Assembly: GCA_051439505.1 (NCBI GenBank)
Contig: JBFRWI010000194.1
Span: 1-21,341, forward strand
DNA length: 21,341 nucleotides
Direction of reading: 5' to 3'
DNA from: Hormoscilla sp.
GTDB taxonomy: Bacteria > Cyanobacteriota > Cyanobacteriia > Cyanobacteriales > Desertifilaceae
In this document: one piece after another, positions 1,799 through 15,583 of the stretch
How the letters are laid out: each line of letters begins with the position of its first letter
How positions within the stretch are numbered: the stretch's first letter is position 1
Translations under genes and position numbers: made by a program
Notes under the pieces: model-generated
Database searches by the model: none
The model's input: only the letters and a program-made list of their open reading frames with translations
Told to the model about the DNA's origin: nothing

Positions 1799-2842
1799 AT
1801 GCAGAAATCCGGGCAAAGCAAAAAACAGTTGACTATATATAACACGAGAGAATTACCAGTGGAAGTGCTCGTCCGGAAATACCGAGATGGGCTGGATGAA
1901 GACACCAATGAGTTGTATATACCAGACTATCAACGAGATATGAATTGGGACGAAAGTCGGCAGTCAAAGTTTATTGAATCTATTTTTATAGGATTACCTA
2001 CCCATATTGTTGTGGCCGATCTGCGACCAAAGCCAGAAGATGATTGGGAGGATTTCGGTCGGTTAGAAATTGTTGATGGAACTCAACGTATCCGAACTTT
2101 AGACATATTTCTCAATAACGAGCTACAGTTGTGTGGACTAGAAAAGCTCAAGAAACTTAACAACTTCAAATTCCGCGATTTGTCCCTAGCAAGACAACGA
2201 CGCTTTAACAGGGTCAGAATTCGCACGAGCGTGCTGACGGCGAAAGCTGATGAAGAAACGCGACGGGATATGTTTGAACGCATCAATGCAGGTAGCGTCG
2301 AACTATATGATATGGAGAAGCTTCTAGCTAGAGATACTGGACCGTTTATCCATCTGCTTGAAGAACTCGCCAAAACTCCCAAATTTATGCAACTATGTCC
2401 CAGATCGGAGGTACTTGTCCGCAAACGGGAACCTGAAGAATTTGTGTTACGTTTTTTTGCCTACTTAAATAACTATCAGAATTTTGACAGGCAGGTCAAT
2501 AAGTTTCTCCATGAATATATAGAAGCACGTAACCATGCTGGAATTGACCCAGATGTTATGGGCTGTGAATTTCACAAAATGTTAGACTTTGTTGACAAAT
2601 ACTTTCCCCATGGATTTAGCAAAACCAAAGGTAATGTGAGAACACCAAGAATTCGCTTCGAGGCAATTTCTGTAGGAGTTGCACTCGCTTTGAGAGAAAA
2701 GAGCGGTCTCGAACCAAAATCAATGGCCTGGCTTGACTCGCCAGAATTTAAGGCATATACTAACTCAGATGCCAGCAAATCCAGATCTAAAGTGATTCGG
2801 CGGATCGAATATGTTCGCGATCGACTTCTCAGTAAATCATGA
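1799..2842 (+). CDS. DUF262 (GmrS/ParB-like) domain protein; N-terminus possibly frameshifted
   Basis: Motifs IPDYQR...W, FIESI..GLP, IVDGTQR.RTL and FERINAG match the DUF262 QR/DGQQR/FxxxN signatures. Coupled to the next gene by ATGA overlap at 2839-2842. Confidence 0.85.
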   Translation: MQKSGQSKKQLTIYNTRELPVEVLVRKYRDGLDEDTNELYIPDYQRDMNWDESRQSKFIESIFIGLPTHIVVADLRPKPEDDWEDFGRLEIVDGTQRIRTLDIFLNNELQLCGLEKLKKLNNFKFRDLSLARQRRFNRVRIRTSVLTAKADEETRRDMFERINAGSVELYDMEKLLARDTGPFIHLLEELAKTPKFMQLCPRSEVLVRKREPEEFVLRFFAYLNNYQNFDRQVNKFLHEYIEARNHAGIDPDVMGCEFHKMLDFVDKYFPHGFSKTKGNVRTPRIRFEAISVGVALALREKSGLEPKSMAWLDSPEFKAYTNSDASKSRSKVIRRIEYVRDRLLSKS

Positions 2843-3537
2843 CTAGCACGTTATTTCAGGACTTCAACGAACGCTCGAAGGAAGTGAGCAAATATTTTCT
2901 GCTCTTGAAGAGTTTGGAGCAGGAGACTACTAAATTAAGTATGGAAGGTAAAGGGGGAAGCCAAAAAATACGAGCAATTGATTCTGAGTTAATCAATACC
3001 TTAAAATCCAGTGGTTTTCTGTTGCTCTATAATCTAGTATAATCGACAATGCGAAACGCGATCGGAGCAATATTTAACGAACTGCAAAGTCAAGGATTTG
3101 ACTACGACAAAATTAGACCGGAACTCAAAAAAGTTATCCTCAAAAACCTCAAGAAGCGAAACCAAAAAAAAATATTTTCAAGTATAACAGCTATTGCGGT
3201 AGATATTATTACTGCTGGATTTGAGAAAGAAGATCTTTTTTCGGGAAACGTCGATGCTAGAAAAATCAGATATCCGGCAACTGAATATGGATTTTCACAT
3301 CTGACTGATTATGCCAAAACAGGTCATGGATTGGATTTATTGATAATCAAGTCAAATAGGAATGATTTAGCCCATGGCTATAAATCTTTTGCCGAGGTAG
3401 GAAAAGAAAAAACTGCAGATGAGTTATTATAGATTAAGAAGAAGACAGTCAGCTATTTAAGGGAAATCATGCAAAATATTGAACAATATTTATCAAATAA
3501 AGAATACTTAGATTCATCGACTACAGGGACTCCTTAA
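2839..3537 (+). pseudogene. HEPN nuclease (MAE_28990/MAE_18760-like), interrupted by TAA 3040-3042 and TAG 3430-3432
   Basis: Track ORFs 2839..3042 and 3049..3432 plus the tail to TAA 3535-3537 are one frame: ...LLYNLV*STMRNAI...FSGNVDARKI...RNDLAHG...ADELL*IKKKTVSYLREIMQNIEQYL.... RNDLAH is the HEPN Rx4H motif. Confidence 0.85.
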
Positions 3538-6142: not shown

Positions 6143-6730
6143 TCACGAGTACCCCATCCAAAAAGCCAGGGGATTTATCCGGCATGGCACAAGCGGCCAG
6201 TAACGCAAGTAAGTTTCCATCTCTGGTGGTTCCTGAGGGTCGCCGAAGGGCTGCCACCGGGGCGGTTCCAATCCCAGTCCCAAACAGAGATGACAGATAA
6301 CGTCAAAAAAACGCCGATCGTGACCGGGCGAACCTAAATGAGCATGAGCATATTCATGGACAACTACGCTCAACCAGTCCGCCGGTGCTGTCCTACCCAC
6401 ATCGATGAGAATCTCTACAGGATTTCGCCAGATATTGCAACAACCGTCTATACCAAACTCTGGCGCTAAAGGGGTGGCCAGAATGCGGATCTGACGGCGC
6501 ACCTCCGCATGAAAGCAGCCGTGACAGGCTTCCAGACTGTCATGGAGTTGAGCGTTAATGGCGTCAATGTGATTGCCAACCCAGGTAATCATCTGTGGAT
6601 TATCCGGAATCGGAACCATCTTTGGGTCTAAGGCCAGTTGACGCACAGCCTGCAAATATTCATAGCCGCGTGCAAAGGGACTGACATCACCAGCCCCATA
6701 CCGAGTAATACTGTCTGGGTTCCCTGGCAT
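6143..6730 (-). CDS. Hypothetical HExxH zinc-metallopeptidase-like protein (SprT/YgjP-like motif); start uncertain
   Basis: VVVHEYAHAHLGSPGHDRRF (HExxH...H..xF). 5' end overlaps the cpcS 3' end. Confidence 0.65.
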   Translation of the reverse strand: MPGNPDSITRYGAGDVSPFARGYEYLQAVRQLALDPKMVPIPDNPQMITWVGNHIDAINAQLHDSLEACHGCFHAEVRRQIRILATPLAPEFGIDGCCNIWRNPVEILIDVGRTAPADWLSVVVHEYAHAHLGSPGHDRRFFDVICHLCLGLGLEPPRWQPFGDPQEPPEMETYLRYWPLVPCRINPLAFWMGYS

Positions 6731-7301
6731 CCTCTACTTGTTGGGGGGTTGTCTCTTCACTGCTGGAAATATCTAAAGGAGATCCGATCCTGGTTTCCAC
6801 ACATAAGGATGCGGTGCTGAACCCGCCGAAGCGCTTCACCGCACTGGTCCGCATCCGCAGATCCGAATTAATAAAGGAGAAACGTTCTTGAGAACTCATG
6901 GTTTCATATTCGGTCAGCAGAATCAGCCCATCTTCATCGTCCATCAAATAACGACCAGCTACCGGTGCTATTTCAGCATAGCCTTTTTCTCGCAGTAACT
7001 GACCTGCTCTGGGATTCTCCCGATCGGGCACTATGACCATCACCGTCGAGTCTGTATGATTTTCATCTGTTTTATCCCACGCCATGGTCCCCTGCCAACT
7101 TACTAGGGCTCCACCGGCAGCCAAACTCGGGTCTACCTGATGTAACTGGCAGATTTCCACCACTCGCCGATCGTCCGCTGCCAGAGTTTTCACTTCTATC
7201 TCTGAGGCCCCTGTCTCCGCACGCCTGAAGGGCAGATGATGTGTCGATCGCTGCGATCGCCACCTGCCGGCAGACGCGATAAAGAATTCCATTGCGTCCA
7301 T
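6687..7301 (-). CDS. cpcS: S/U-family phycobiliprotein lyase, CpcS-I type
   Basis: EFF..SAGRWRSQR.THHLPFRRAE, GYAEIAPVAG, KRFGGF and terminal GW fit CpcS-I. Confidence 0.8.
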   Translation of the reverse strand: MDAMEFFIASAGRWRSQRSTHHLPFRRAETGASEIEVKTLAADDRRVVEICQLHQVDPSLAAGGALVSWQGTMAWDKTDENHTDSTVMVIVPDRENPRAGQLLREKGYAEIAPVAGRYLMDDEDGLILLTEYETMSSQERFSFINSDLRMRTSAVKRFGGFSTASLCVETRIGSPLDISSSEETTPQQVEDAREPRQYYSVWGW

Positions 7302-7436
7302 CTATTTCCCCCATACCACTGCTACATCTGTTACCGGATTCTACCATGCTGTCGCCGCCAATACAGGCTTTTATGAATTTTTGTTACTTTCCTAAATTAT
7401 TGCTTGACAATGTATCGATTTTAGCAGCAAAGCATT

Positions 7437-7454
7437 GTTACATCTGTTGACAAT
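7437..7454 (+). promoter_or_regulatory. HLR1-like (RpaB-type) direct repeat upstream of nblA
   Basis: GTTACATC-TG-TTGACAAT, 10-bp period, imperfect match to (G/T)TTACA(T/A)(T/A)-N2-(G/T)TTACA(T/A)(T/A). Confidence 0.45.
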
Positions 7455-7488
7455 CAAGAAAAGACAATTCGCGCCTGGGAGTAAAGCC

Positions 7489-7656
7489 ATGAAAAAGCCT
7501 TCCAATCTCACCTTGGAGCAACAATTCAAAATGAAAGTCTACCAAGAGCAGGTTAAAAGTATGAGTAAGCAAGAAGCTCAAGAATGCTTGCTCGAAGTCT
7601 TGCGACAGATGATGGTCAAAGATAACTTGGTCAAGCAGTTGCTCAAGAATGCTTAA
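7489..7656 (+). CDS. nblA: Phycobilisome degradation adaptor NblA
   Basis: 55 aa, LTLEQQF...QVKSMSKQEAQECL...QMMVKDN signature; GGGAG RBS before ATG 7489. Confidence 0.92.
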   Translation: MKKPSNLTLEQQFKMKVYQEQVKSMSKQEAQECLLEVLRQMMVKDNLVKQLLKNA

Positions 7657-7660
7657 GCTG

Positions 7661-8362
7661 CTATGGACTCTGCCGATCGCCGGTTGTGGGGGGACGGCCT
7701 ACCGCGCCCCCCTCGGTCTTGCTAGAGGCGATCGCATCGATCGGATCTGCTACTGGGAATTCTTGCCGCAACTGCAGATCGTACTTGTGTAGTCCGTTGA
7801 TGCTGCCACTGAAGCTACCGACGATCGTCTTGAGATCTGCAATCAGTTCCCCTTGGCAACTATGAACCTGCCGGTCGAGAACCAGGATTTGGCAGCCAAA
7901 TTGCCTACATAACCATTCGATCAAGTCAAACCCAAATCTAACTAGCCGGTCTTGGTTGGCAACCACAATACATGCGATCTCGCCTCTGATGACTCGTTCT
8001 AACATGGCCAGAAATCTAGGCCGGCTAAAATTGAGTCCGGAGCCAATTTCACAGATCGCTTCACAGTCTGGATACTCTGCCATGAGATCGGCAGCTTGTC
8101 TCCTCAACTGCTCCTGCTGGCTTTGGAGGGCAACTCTGGCATACAGAATGGTTGTAGAACTGGAATTTTGACACTCAGCTGTCGTTTGGCCAGGCTCGCC
8201 GATACCCGATCGTTGGAGATATTCTTCCAGGTCGTAACGTCTTTGTCCCGCCGCCGTGCGGATCGCCTTGATTTTTCCTTGCGCTTCCCATCTCGTCAGA
8301 GTTCTGGTATGAACTCCCAAAGCCGAGGCTGCAACCCGAGGCGTCACATAATGATTAGACAT
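7661..8362 (-). CDS. IS607 TnpA-like protein (MerR-type wHTH + serine-recombinase domain) with the catalytic Ser replaced by Ala; no tnpB
   Basis: N-terminal AASALGVHTRTLTRWEAQGKIKAIRTAAGQRRY; then YARVA in place of YARVS (GCC codon at 8129-8131), EIGSGLNF and DRLVRFGFD. Confidence 0.85.
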   Translation of the reverse strand: MSNHYVTPRVAASALGVHTRTLTRWEAQGKIKAIRTAAGQRRYDLEEYLQRSGIGEPGQTTAECQNSSSTTILYARVALQSQQEQLRRQAADLMAEYPDCEAICEIGSGLNFSRPRFLAMLERVIRGEIACIVVANQDRLVRFGFDLIEWLCRQFGCQILVLDRQVHSCQGELIADLKTIVGSFSGSINGLHKYDLQLRQEFPVADPIDAIASSKTEGGAVGRPPTTGDRQSP

Positions 8363-8442
8363 CTTTCTTCTTCCTGTTAGTGCCGGTCAGCTACTGAAAA
8401 TTTACAACTGACAACGATCGCTAGCCACCATTCCACCCTGCG

Positions 8443-8471
8443 ATCGTAACTAAATTTGTCCAAAATGTCAA
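8443..8471 (-). promoter_or_regulatory. Putative sigma70 promoter of the TnpA-like gene
   Basis: On the minus strand, TTGACA (8471-8466), 17 nt, TACGAT (8448-8443). The -35 is overlapped by 9-bp-period repeats (TGTC at 8457 and 8466). Confidence 0.6.
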
Positions 8472-8528
8472 AATAATTCCCCAAAAATCAGCTCTGACGG
8501 AGGATTGAGTCAGTTGGGACAACAGAAA

Positions 8529-8548
8529 ATATTACAGATTGTTACTTT
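8529..8548 (+). promoter_or_regulatory. Direct-repeat regulator site upstream of cpeBA (HLR1- or PepB-box-like)
   Basis: ATATTA-CAGA-TTGTTA, also readable as ATTACAGA-TT-GTTACTTT (10-bp period). The same ATATTACA-N3-TGTTA occurs upstream of cpeC. Confidence 0.55.
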
Positions 8549-8655
8549 GTCTTTAATAATTGGGACCGCAAAACCAATTATCGCCTAAAGTAAAGAGTAG
8601 CTGGTCAGATTACTTGACGAGCACCATCTGAGTACCTTAGACTTGGGAGATATAA

Positions 8656-9189
<534 letters not shown>

Positions 9190-9235
9190 CCAAATCCTTT
9201 AACGAGTTAAAGCCGAACTTCTCGGTGCGCTTTGA

Positions 9236-9787
<552 letters not shown>

Positions 9788-12959: not shown

Positions 12960-13583
12960 ATGACCACAGAAGATTTGTATCAACAACTGAAACATAAGAA
13001 TCCGAGACTGCGCGAAAGAGCAATGCGCCAAATTGCAGACGAAAAAACTGCCAATACTATTGGGAAAATGATGGCAATTTTGTCTGATGAAGATGTGGTC
13101 TACCGGCGGGCCGCCGTGCAAGCTTTGGGTCTGATTGGTTTGGATGCTGTCCCTGCATTGTTAGAACAACTGACAGGCAGTGATAATGAAACAGTCAGGG
13201 CTAGCTGCGCTAAAGCACTGGCCGCGATCGCCCTGAATTTCCCCGAAGAGAACTTCCCCAAAGAAGCGCTTGCGGGTTTGCAAACAGCTCTCAAAGATCC
13301 CAACCCAGTAGTAAAAATCTCCGCAGTGGGCGCACTCGGCACAGTGGGACCACCCGCCTTGGATATTCTCGTCGATGCCATGACTATCGATGATATTGCT
13401 CTCCAAGTCGCGGTGATTAATGCCCTCGGATCCCTGGGAGACTCTAAAGCTGCTGACGTGCTATCCCCCCTTACCCAGGATGAAGCAGCTGACCCCTACA
13501 TTCGGGAGTCAGCTATCAGTGCTTTATCTCGCCTAGAGCAAGTTACCAACTTTAAATCCAAAACATCCGCTGCGACAGACTAA
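12960..13583 (+). CDS. cpeZ: HEAT-repeat bilin attachment chaperone CpeZ
   Basis: LYQQLKHKNPRLRERAM...EDVVYRRAAVQALG...VRASCAKALA...YIRESAISALSRL; 207 aa in a PE cluster. Confidence 0.85.
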   Translation: MTTEDLYQQLKHKNPRLRERAMRQIADEKTANTIGKMMAILSDEDVVYRRAAVQALGLIGLDAVPALLEQLTGSDNETVRASCAKALAAIALNFPEENFPKEALAGLQTALKDPNPVVKISAVGALGTVGPPALDILVDAMTIDDIALQVAVINALGSLGDSKAADVLSPLTQDEAADPYIRESAISALSRLEQVTNFKSKTSAATD

Positions 13584-15298
13584 AAATTGCGCTGACGCCA
13601 CTTATTTAAATAAGTTTCTCCTATTGCAGCAGTTGGCTGCAACTCGGCGACTTGTTGTTGTAAAGTGGCAATCAGCTTTGCCTGTTCTTCAGACTGCTGT
13701 TGCAAAGATGCGTAACTCATTAATGGTCCATTTCCTAGGGTCTGAGTTGGCCGCTCTTGCCAACCGTTAAGCTGTTGTTGCAGTTGCGCCACCACCTTTG
13801 CTTGCTTTTCCGACTCCTGCCGCAAAGATTCATATTCTGATAGTGGCACCCGATCGGAATATAGCCGCATCTGTTGTTGCAATGCGGCGATCGCCCGTTC
13901 TTTTTGTTCCGACTGTTGCCGCAAAGATTCATATTTTTCCAAGGGCACCCGTTCTTGCAGTTCCCGGATCTGTTCTTGTAACTGGGCCATCTGATTTGCT
14001 TGCGATCGGGACTCATTCTGTAACAGTTCGTACTTTTCTAAGGGCTCCCGAGTTTGACCAATTTTTTCTTCTAGTCGAGCGATCTGACTTGCCTGTTCTG
14101 CAACTTTTTGTCGTACCTGTTCATAGGTGTATAGCGGCACACGCTGTAGCAACTCAGAGACCTGTTTTTGCAACTCCGCTACTACCTTTGCTTGTGTTTC
14201 CGACTCTTGCTGGACTGATTCCAATTCTAACTGCACGGCCTTCCTATTCTCGGCGTCCATACTATGTTGCAACTCATGCAACTGTTGTTGTAAGGACGCT
14301 ACCACCTGCGCTTGTGCTTGGGCGTCCTGCTGCAATGACTCATATTCTGAACGCGGCACCCGAGATGACAACTCAGAGATCCGAGAATGCAACTCTTCTA
14401 TCTGACTTGCTTGCCCTTGGGCCTCCTGCTGCAATGTTTCGTATTCATTGCGCGGCACCCGAGATGACAACTCAGAGATCTCGGAGTGCAACTGTTCTAC
14501 CTGACTTGCTTGCGCTGCCAAGTCCTGCTGCAATGACTCATATTCATTGCGCGGCACCCGAGATGACAATTCCTCTATCTGAGAGTGCAACTGTTCTACC
14601 TGACTTGCTTGTGCTGCCGCATCCTGCTGCAATGTTTCATATTCCGATCGCGGCACCCGGGATGACCATTCGCCCAGCTTTGTTTCTAACTCCTCTATCT
14701 GTGTTGCTTGTGCTGCCGCATTCTGCTGCAATGTTTCATAACTTTCCAGCGGCACCGTCCCATCTTTTAGACTTGCGATCGCCTTTTCCCACTCCCCCTG
14801 CTGTCCTTGTAACTCCTCTATCTGAGTTGCTCGTGCTTCCGACTCTTGCCGCAATGATTCATATTTTTCTAATGGTACCGTCCCCTCGTCCTTCGTTGCT
14901 AGAGCTGCTTCCAACTCCTTTATCTGTTCTTGTAAATCTACAATCAACTGTGCTTGTGCTTGATTACTTTCTGACTGCACCTCTGATTCTGTCACATCGG
15001 CAACTGGACTGGACAATTGACTATCCACCACCTGAAACTCTATGCCCAGCTTTGCTATTTCTGCATCTGTTAGAGTTTTATTGTCAACCGACTCACTTAG
15101 CGCGATCGCCATTTTTGCTGAGTCACTTTCGATCGAGATACACCCTCTTGCGATCTGCTCTACCATTTCCGAGCGGGACAAATTTGCCTTTACGGCCATC
15201 TTATCCAGCAACTTTCTTCCTGTGGGCGTCATTGAAATCCCCAGCTTGACCTTTATCTCTGAATATAACGCCGGAACTCCACGACTTTTCTTTGCCAT
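13580..15298 (-). CDS. Hypothetical protein: N-terminal RHH/CopG-like DNA-binding domain, about 12 x 33-aa helical repeats, and a PE-linker-like C-terminal tail
   Basis: ATG 15298 with GAGGTGG RBS. KVKLGISMTPTGRKLLDKMAVKANLSRSEMVEQIAR reads as strand-helix-helix with an SRSE motif. Repeats have the pattern VP..EYE.LQQ....QA.QI..L; the protein ends LQPTAAIGETYLNKWRQRNF. Confidence 0.85.
   Translation of the reverse strand: MAKKSRGVPALYSEIKVKLGISMTPTGRKLLDKMAVKANLSRSEMVEQIARGCISIESDSAKMAIALSESVDNKTLTDAEIAKLGIEFQVVDSQLSSPVADVTESEVQSESNQAQAQLIVDLQEQIKELEAALATKDEGTVPLEKYESLRQESEARATQIEELQGQQGEWEKAIASLKDGTVPLESYETLQQNAAAQATQIEELETKLGEWSSRVPRSEYETLQQDAAAQASQVEQLHSQIEELSSRVPRNEYESLQQDLAAQASQVEQLHSEISELSSRVPRNEYETLQQEAQGQASQIEELHSRISELSSRVPRSEYESLQQDAQAQAQVVASLQQQLHELQHSMDAENRKAVQLELESVQQESETQAKVVAELQKQVSELLQRVPLYTYEQVRQKVAEQASQIARLEEKIGQTREPLEKYELLQNESRSQANQMAQLQEQIRELQERVPLEKYESLRQQSEQKERAIAALQQQMRLYSDRVPLSEYESLRQESEKQAKVVAQLQQQLNGWQERPTQTLGNGPLMSYASLQQQSEEQAKLIATLQQQVAELQPTAAIGETYLNKWRQRNF
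14325..14760. repeat. Intragenic 99-bp tandem repeat (most similar copies)
   Basis: GGCACC recurs at 14355, 14454, 14553, 14652 and 14751 (exact 99-bp period) with highly similar flanks. Confidence 0.9.
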
Positions 15299-15583
15299 TA
15301 ACACCACCTCTAATTCTGTTATTTTTTCAGTATACCCTATCTAAGTCCTTGCTACAAGTCCCTTTCGGCTTTTCCCCTAGAGGCTGTCTTCTACTCCCTA
15401 TACTTACCTTAATTATGACTACAGATACCTCGATCTTCCAAGCTACTCTTCTTGCGGGGATCTTTGAGGACTTGAGGTGCTGAATACAAGTTTATTTTTG
15501 CTCCAAGGGCGATCGCACTGCCTAGCATCTTCTGGGCTACTCCCCACTACCTATTAGTATCATTCCAAAATATATTTTTCCTA

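Follow-up and report, generated by a model that had tools for sequence, protein, structure and literature searches.

What is a transposase gene doing alone between nblA and cpeB, and is it anything more than the remnant of a mobile element? In the 21,341-nt stretch of DNA analysed here (the window, which is contig C194 of genome G000), a solo gene derived from the tnpA of an IS607 element lies convergent with nblA and divergent from cpeBA. A first-pass annotation had suggested that it is a transposase co-opted as a DNA-binding regulator. Domestication of the gene is well supported by the sequence comparisons described below, and it is very probable that the protein has some selected function and is thus more than a relic.

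A solo tnpA gene between nblA and cpeB

The features needed for the argument are listed here by position in the window.

7489..7656 (+): nblA, convergent with the tnpA-derived gene, the two stops lying 4 bp apart
7661..8362 (-): solo IS607 tnpA-derived gene, 233 aa (ORF call, Pfam, NCBIfam, predicted fold)
7750..8349 (-): relic +1 reading frame overlapping all of tnpA; its counterpart in active relatives continues into tnpB, and here it holds 9 stops along the ORF; low end approximate
7787..7804 (-): degenerate helix-E motif, residues 187-192, with the family Arg at 187 and 192 replaced
8129..8131 (-): codon 78, Ala replacing the catalytic Ser (alignment to TnpA homologues)
8213..8362 (-): MerR/BldC-like winged helix-turn-helix (HTH), codons 1-50, near-invariant among intact orthologues
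8363..8397 (-): 35-nt leader with ribosome-binding site (RBS), without a single difference between the window and the four congeners
8455..8481 (-): relic of an IS607 left-end repeat motif and candidate binding site; a sigma70-like -35 hexamer (8471-8466) overlaps it
8529..8567 (+): promoter block of the host cpeB, conserved whether or not a genus has the insertion; an HLR1-like (RpaB-type) repeat lies in it at 8531-8548
8656..9787 (+): cpeB (8656-9189) and cpeA (9293-9787), divergent from the tnpA-derived gene; the names come from the first-pass annotation and the neighbouring CpeY, Pfam giving the phycobiliprotein family only

The 233-aa protein is composed of a winged HTH (residues ~1-50), a linker, a serine-recombinase core (71-165), a helix E region (166-200) and a low-confidence tail (206-233). 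Pfam places MerR at 8-43 and Resolvase at 72-184, and the NCBIfam cut-off for IS607 transposases is passed with 142 bits vs 110, so that the protein has both the N-terminal MerR-like HTH with C-terminal serine recombinase domain and the score of an IS607 TnpA family member. In the predicted structure, the winged HTH, the recombinase core and helix E are confident, and the linker (55-66) and the tail (206-233) are disordered. Foldseek matches the predicted fold to 3LHK and 3ILX (E 7e-12). The earlier description of the gene proved accurate in its details: an intact, stop-free ORF with IS607 TnpA architecture and its motifs, a purine-rich RBS upstream, the nucleophile motif YARVALQSQQEQL, the C-terminal segment FSGSINGLH, and a stop 4 bp from that of nblA (the gap being 7657-7660).

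The catalytic Ser of the YARVS motif of active IS607 transposases is Ala78 in this protein. In the alignment with the solved ISC1904 TnpA, Ala78 falls on the Ser of the latter, and the position is Ser in 172 of 175 other TnpA homologues. Ser is needed for IS607 transposition, and its replacement by Gly abolishes transposition (PMC6188088); the window copy is therefore almost surely inactive as a transposase. Ala78 is not an assembly slip, because P0084, P0004, P0005 and all four congeners carry Ala too. The acidic pair E172/D176, probably the autoinhibitory pair described in PMC4058570, and the core Arg residues are retained. Among the seven intact orthologues, three (P0002, P0003 and P0085) keep the Ser, and P0003 and P0085 additionally keep R187 and R192; D85 and the family's usual Tyr at 189 are lost in all of them. 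In a tree test, a single origin of Ala78 gave p-AU 0.144, so that the Ala may have arisen once or twice. The first-pass statement that catalytic residues were lost while HTH and fold were kept is thus right for the window copy (Ala78, degenerate helix E) but fails as a marker of the clade, in which three members have Ser. As read from these sequences, immobilisation preceded catalytic decay, and this decay is patchy among the orthologues.

In this subfamily, the tnpB of an active IS607 element is an open +1 frame overlapping tnpA, and such a frame is not open here. Nothing in the window matches TnpB either (best E 0.13). A scan of 7641-7800 for left-end-type motifs gave no match, and no right end was found by it. 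It had been argued that the 4-bp gap leaves no room for tnpB or a right end. The part on tnpB stands, but a right end needs little space: a tnpB-less IS607 of ~880 bp in the genus ends right behind its own tnpA stop. This element (L135:1252-2128, on contig C170 of G000) has an intact tnpA; the orthologous congener site is empty and many other congener sites are occupied, and judged from these sites it is a mobile solo-tnpA family. A further observation concerns the widespread IS607 subfamily with the overlapping frame. At L025-L029, L087, L126-L133 and on contigs C1, C213, C125 and C174 of G000, the tnpB frame, in +1, extends back across the entire tnpA and meets no stop from a point close to where tnpA starts, leaving 500-590 codons open; this suggests a long N-terminal extension or programmed frameshifting. 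No description of an overlapping open tnpB frame in IS607 was found in the literature searched.

One site in one genus

The gene is present once in G000, as a copy-number check suggested by the first-pass annotation confirms. Other tnpA-like loci are on seven other contigs and are 30-45% identical, several of them with stops. A protein search restricted to lengths of 128-408 (669 candidates, 83 matches) found four full-length relatives that are 72-79% identical, followed by a gap down to active TnpAs at ~55%, and a cluster look-up added P0084 (91%) and P0085. Five intact clusters are 72-79% identical over their full length; such searches return near full-length products only and favour intact copies. 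P0006 and P0086 are apparently truncated products of the same kind as the congener pseudogenes. The orthologues form a clade with support 100/99 and a long stem. The closest homologues are syntenic orthologues; multicopy active elements in their place, which the first-pass annotation had named as fatal to its proposal, were not what was found. P0015 and P0020 form a sister lineage (support 96/90, long stems) with a similar HTH, the Ser kept and a degenerate helix-E motif; they may represent another domestication within this TnpA lineage, either earlier or in parallel.

The site between nblA and cpeB is occupied by the tnpA-derived gene in all four other genomes of the genus, with the same gene order. 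For three other IS607 copies of G000 that were tested, the congener sites are empty and the copies lineage-specific, so that sharing of the site is special to the tnpA-derived copy. Several copies, or empty sites in close kin, are signs of mobility; this gene has one copy in G000 and four of four congener sites filled, and is inherited vertically at a fixed locus. The locus is also found in sequencing runs; those covering the stretch best are marine-sediment runs, among which its source may be. Four runs were aligned to the locus. One contig of run X17 spans the whole of 6600-9300 with 225 differences, and one 5500-bp contig of run X16 spans nearly all of it, these two runs coming from two other studies; run X9 gives partial cover (7868-8540). 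The X16 contig is of the same length as the contig given for the Ser-bearing P0085, which suggests that a Ser-bearing allele may sit at this same site. The X9 contig is near the window allele over 525 nt (7868-8392, 11 differences) and switches at 7868 to the P0002 allele type, a mosaic which suggests recombination among alleles of the gene.

A lack of the gene at this locus in relatives had been named as a refuting outcome. All four congeners carry it, but all four copies are pseudogenes, with a shared frameshift near codon 9 and inserted small repeats; their cpeBA and nblA are intact. Maintenance of the ORF without stops or frameshifts is accordingly true of the window copy but not of these four. 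The congeners with the broken gene are presumably sponge symbionts (Hormoscilla). The insertions in L021-L024 are small nested repeats with inverted ends, found in the tnpA pseudogene and in the cpeB upstream region, and a 12-mer of them occurs 3-20 times per congener genome. Some genes neighbouring the locus in congeners look lengthened or split.

The first-pass annotation had proposed to look for a Ser-less, tnpB-less clade across phycoerythrin-containing cyanobacteria. In the genomes searched, the clade is confined to one genus. A metagenome scan for orthologues beyond the genus found 52 loci, 32-66% identical, of which none adjoins nblA, cpeB or cpeA; the nucleophile motif can be read in 43 of the 52, and all 43 have Ser. 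A scan of a genome collection gave 32 loci with only four orthologues, all within this genus, and P0015 as a query found no match above 56% in 401 order-level genomes. In seven genomes of a sister genus, nblA has neither the tnpA-derived gene nor cpeB adjoining. Other genomes of the order contributed 29 nblA loci; in four of these, a cpeB-like gene (68-77%) comes after nblA and there is no intervening tnpA. Since the junction exists without tnpA in other genera, it is older than the insertion. Therefore, adjacency to the cpeBA promoter, which had been offered as an argument for control, proves nothing on function; the position is an insertion site.

Selection on the reading frame

The dead +1 frame serves as a control for the tnpA frame. 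Over the ORF, the tnpA frame has no stops vs nine in the +1 frame. In seven of seven nearest active relatives, the matched part of the +1 frame contains 0-1 stops, and the frame is likewise open in 7/7 of a second set of loci, one element being common to both sets. Five of the nine +1 stops are common to the congeners, and a sixth is at an insertion edge; stops found in every lineage could have arisen while a tnpB-less element was still mobile. In neutral simulations with four templates, the lack of any frame-0 stop given 5-8 +1 stops has P 0.002-0.012. Six lineage-specific +1 stops vs no frame-0 point stop give P 0.024, and the three stops found only in G000 give P 0.16. In the congener pseudogenes, insertions alone disrupt frame 0, which is free of point stops.

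Constraint is unevenly placed within the protein. Columns conserved in at least 80% of 175 other TnpAs (all stored proteins of 180-260 aa outside the clade) number 37, and 32 of them are invariant in the seven intact orthologues, those changed being S78, Q82, D85, G190 and R192. Across the five orthologue clusters, 5/47 columns vary in the HTH, 30/95 in the core (P 0.007) and 19/35 in helix E; the corresponding means for active relatives, taken over five-member subsets of 10 of them, are 14.1/47, 21.2/95 and 8.6/35. By this measure, constraint has shifted towards the HTH, which is almost frozen, and away from helix E, whereas active relatives show the opposite pattern. In comparisons with the four congener pseudogenes, the HTH has a dN of 0.03-0.045 and the rest of the protein one of 0.17-0.20 (in one pair, P 0.0005). 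Omega over residues 51-233 is 0.65-0.76, where nine neighbours have 0.11-0.35, and it is not significantly lower than 1 (P 0.11); the four comparisons are non-independent and include time spent as a pseudogene. dS is also low in the HTH (0.08-0.14 vs ~0.26, P 0.20), so that constraint at the DNA level may act on this region as well. Per-domain dN/dS, for which the first-pass annotation had called, thus supports constraint on the HTH but not clearly on residues 51-233. Together, the stop asymmetry and the HTH point to purifying selection after immobilisation, with a weaker case for 51-233. The co-option proposed at first therefore stands as far as an immobilised, single-copy, vertically inherited gene with purifying selection on its HTH is concerned, and falls as to a wide spread and to Ser loss as a marker. 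By sequence tests, the gene is a member of the IS607 TnpA family that lacks the Ser, the tnpB and the mobility of an active element and shows the fixed locus and the selection expected of a domesticated gene.

A probable relic left end and the putative function

Active relatives have GGAYA-type repeats with ~9-bp spacing upstream of tnpA. The motif of this kind at 8455-8481 scores 13.0 (chance 0.0009 per 130 positions, the columns having been picked from an alignment that included the window sequence) vs -1.8 in a congener with the dead gene. It is ~50 bp from the cpeB promoter block, which is conserved in all six sequences aligned. Both the nblA-cpeB junction and this block exist without tnpA, which means that the element was inserted into an old junction just upstream of a host promoter. 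The HLR1-like repeat of the block has three mismatches to the HLR1 (RpaB-type) consensus given in PMC6525291. A second such repeat is upstream of nblA (7437-7454), and the window holds 12 matches vs 4.5 expected. A sigma70-like site matching at 10/12 overlaps the left-end motif; its -35-like hexamer is degraded in congeners and its -10-like hexamer is not conserved there. In RNA run X14, contigs, which show presence only, cover cpeB and not the tnpA-derived gene. Rfam gave no match in 7200-8800 at E up to 1.

IS607 TnpA is described as binding short direct repeats of the left end with a cooperative spread of ~70 bp, and IS1535 TnpA as covering bp 8-78 of its left end cooperatively (PMC6188088). 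On these grounds the following course of events is proposed. As the comparison of sites shows, the ancestor of the genus acquired an IS607 element immediately upstream of the cpeB promoter, and tnpB was then lost. We infer with good confidence that the TnpA protein was retained thereafter as a putative DNA-binding factor and not as an enzyme; catalytic residues would drift because the chemistry was no longer needed. The descendant protein most likely still dimerises via the intact recombinase core, and its frozen HTH would bind the relic left-end repeats. Binding there would repress the promoter of the gene itself and, over a distance of ~50 bp, modulate that of the divergent cpeBA, beside the RpaB-type site. 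By analogy with IS1535 TnpA, the coat would cover ~8430-8500 and end 30-50 bp from the HLR1-like repeat. The function would be dispensable in one lineage, in which the gene and the left-end motif decayed together; insertions only, one shared frameshift and no point stop fit one recent loss in the congeners. That a transposase-derived DNA-binding protein coats the relic end and tunes cpeBA is the reading we prefer, though we give it somewhat less than an even chance. A fuller version is more speculative: a host transcription factor may have been born from an IS607 serine transposase, with the relic left end as an operator tuning cpeBA in free-living members, and protein and operator may have been lost together in the presumably sponge-symbiotic lineage.

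The protein might act elsewhere, as a trans regulator or as a dominant-negative or repressing brake on IS607, its place beside cpeBA being accidental. All the selection evidence concerns the protein and not its target, the nblA-cpeB site predates the gene, other IS607 copies in the genome include several broken ones, and five near-identical IS607 copies are present in one of the congeners whose gene is dead. Nevertheless, the resident IS607 copies are only 30-45% identical to the gene, their upstream regions are absent from the top 25 motif matches, and no IS607 burst is seen in the remaining three of these congeners. Nor did a genome-wide motif scan give a convincing, regulon-like set of upstream sites: 113 positions score as high as the left-end motif, and the top seven examined are mostly inside ORFs. 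We regard action elsewhere as rather unlikely.

The protein might also be kept only to silence the element that encodes it. A promoter of the relic left end would fire towards nblA, and repression by the protein would limit antisense transcription into nblA, with no new regulation gained and the gene losable once the promoter decays. The sigma70-like site overlapping the left-end motif is consistent with such a lock-in, and its -35-like hexamer and the gene are both degraded in congeners. There is also no terminator-like site between the convergent genes; a GC-rich hairpin in the tail was considered as a terminator and rejected, since neither it nor the leader fold is above shuffles (z 0.3 to -0.65). 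However, mutation or deletion of the promoter would be an easy escape for the host, yet five clusters have kept the 233-aa protein with its RBS, and the -10-like hexamer is not conserved in the congeners. This explanation is unlikely.

Quite improbable is an old immobile relic in slow decay, with the ORF kept by chance, database bias and allele exchange and its 5' part conserved for a reason at the DNA or RNA level: the broken gene in all four other assembled genomes, the omega of ~0.7 outside the HTH with low dS within it, the allele mosaic of X9, and the fact that a tnpB-less IS607 can stay mobile in the genus (lineage-wide stops may then predate immobilisation) speak for it, but the probability that a neutral ORF of 233 codons escapes all stops is 0.06 at 0.125 substitutions per site and falls to 0.007 at 0.25, even the pseudogenes lack a frame-0 point stop, the core columns are invariant, and the HTH has ~3 changes vs 13-20 expected neutrally per 50 residues.

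The preferred reading, a DNA-binding protein on the relic end beside cpeBA, has parallels in known systems. With the IS607-family TnpAs (IS607, IS1535, ISC1904, ISC1926) as described in PMC6188088 and PMC4058570, the window protein shares domain order, fold, E172/D176, the core Arg residues and, upstream, a probable relic of the left-end repeats. It differs from them in lacking the nucleophile Ser, in the loss of D85 (common to all orthologues) and in the degenerate helix E, and its gene differs in having no tnpB, in being a single copy fixed at one site across the genus and in the shift of constraint to the HTH. From the sources as cited, the closest functional parallel is TldR, also a gene of an IS200/605/607-type element which lost catalysis and was kept as a DNA-binding regulator, a role that is putative for the window gene. 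TldR, however, derives from TnpB, is RNA-guided and has been demonstrated experimentally (10.1101/2023.11.30.569447), whereas the window protein derives from the serine transposase TnpA and would recognise DNA by its HTH. The closest structural parallel for the HTH is BldC of Streptomyces, its nearest solved relative (E 9e-5, TM 0.8), which binds direct repeats as cooperative multimers (PMC5859096). BldC is a 68-residue HTH-only protein, whereas the window protein keeps a whole recombinase core; with 233 aa and 37.6 bits vs 77, it also falls below the cut-off of the HTH-only BldC family (NF033787). Other DNA-binding proteins of mobile elements at promoters are Mu Ner, which was recruited by hosts and gave rise to SfsB (PMC8987985), and the element repressors Arc and CvkR (10.64898/2026.09.24.754181; PMC9938897). 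These were regulators already, whereas the source of the window gene is the transposase itself.

Domestication of mobile-element genes is a known principle, with TnpB-derived repressors as a recent example; the case of an IS607 serine transposase is apparently new. No report of a domesticated IS607 TnpA, or of this locus, was found in open-access papers and preprints (without their supplements), and the term IS607 is absent from the main text of a review on mobile-element transcription factors. Within one genus, to which its reach is limited, the locus displays a whole life cycle: insertion at a dated empty site, tnpB loss, catalytic drift, HTH freezing and loss in one lineage. The dead overlapping frame is a built-in control with which selection can be looked for in further solo tnpA genes. 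The function is putative; if cpeBA is the target, a transposon end became the operator of a major light-harvesting operon.

Several other features of the window were noted. At 1799-3432, a GmrSD_N gene is followed by a HEPN (MAE_28990-like) gene split in two (2839-3042 and 3049-3432), probably a broken defence pair. In the phycoerythrin cluster, beside a linker gene, 13580-15307 (-) encodes a 575-aa protein with a long repetitive coiled-coil region, and its C-terminus resembles that of the 341-aa linker; three congener loci of 16 kb, which end short of this region, hold no match to it. A short tandem heptapeptide-coding repeat near the contig end (21061-21333, -) is possibly an assembly or repeat-element feature. 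Finally, a 195-aa ORF at 6143-6730 (-), with an HExxH-like motif and no Pfam or NCBIfam match, adjoins a cpeS-like gene and is kept there in the congeners and at 4/29 nblA loci of the order.
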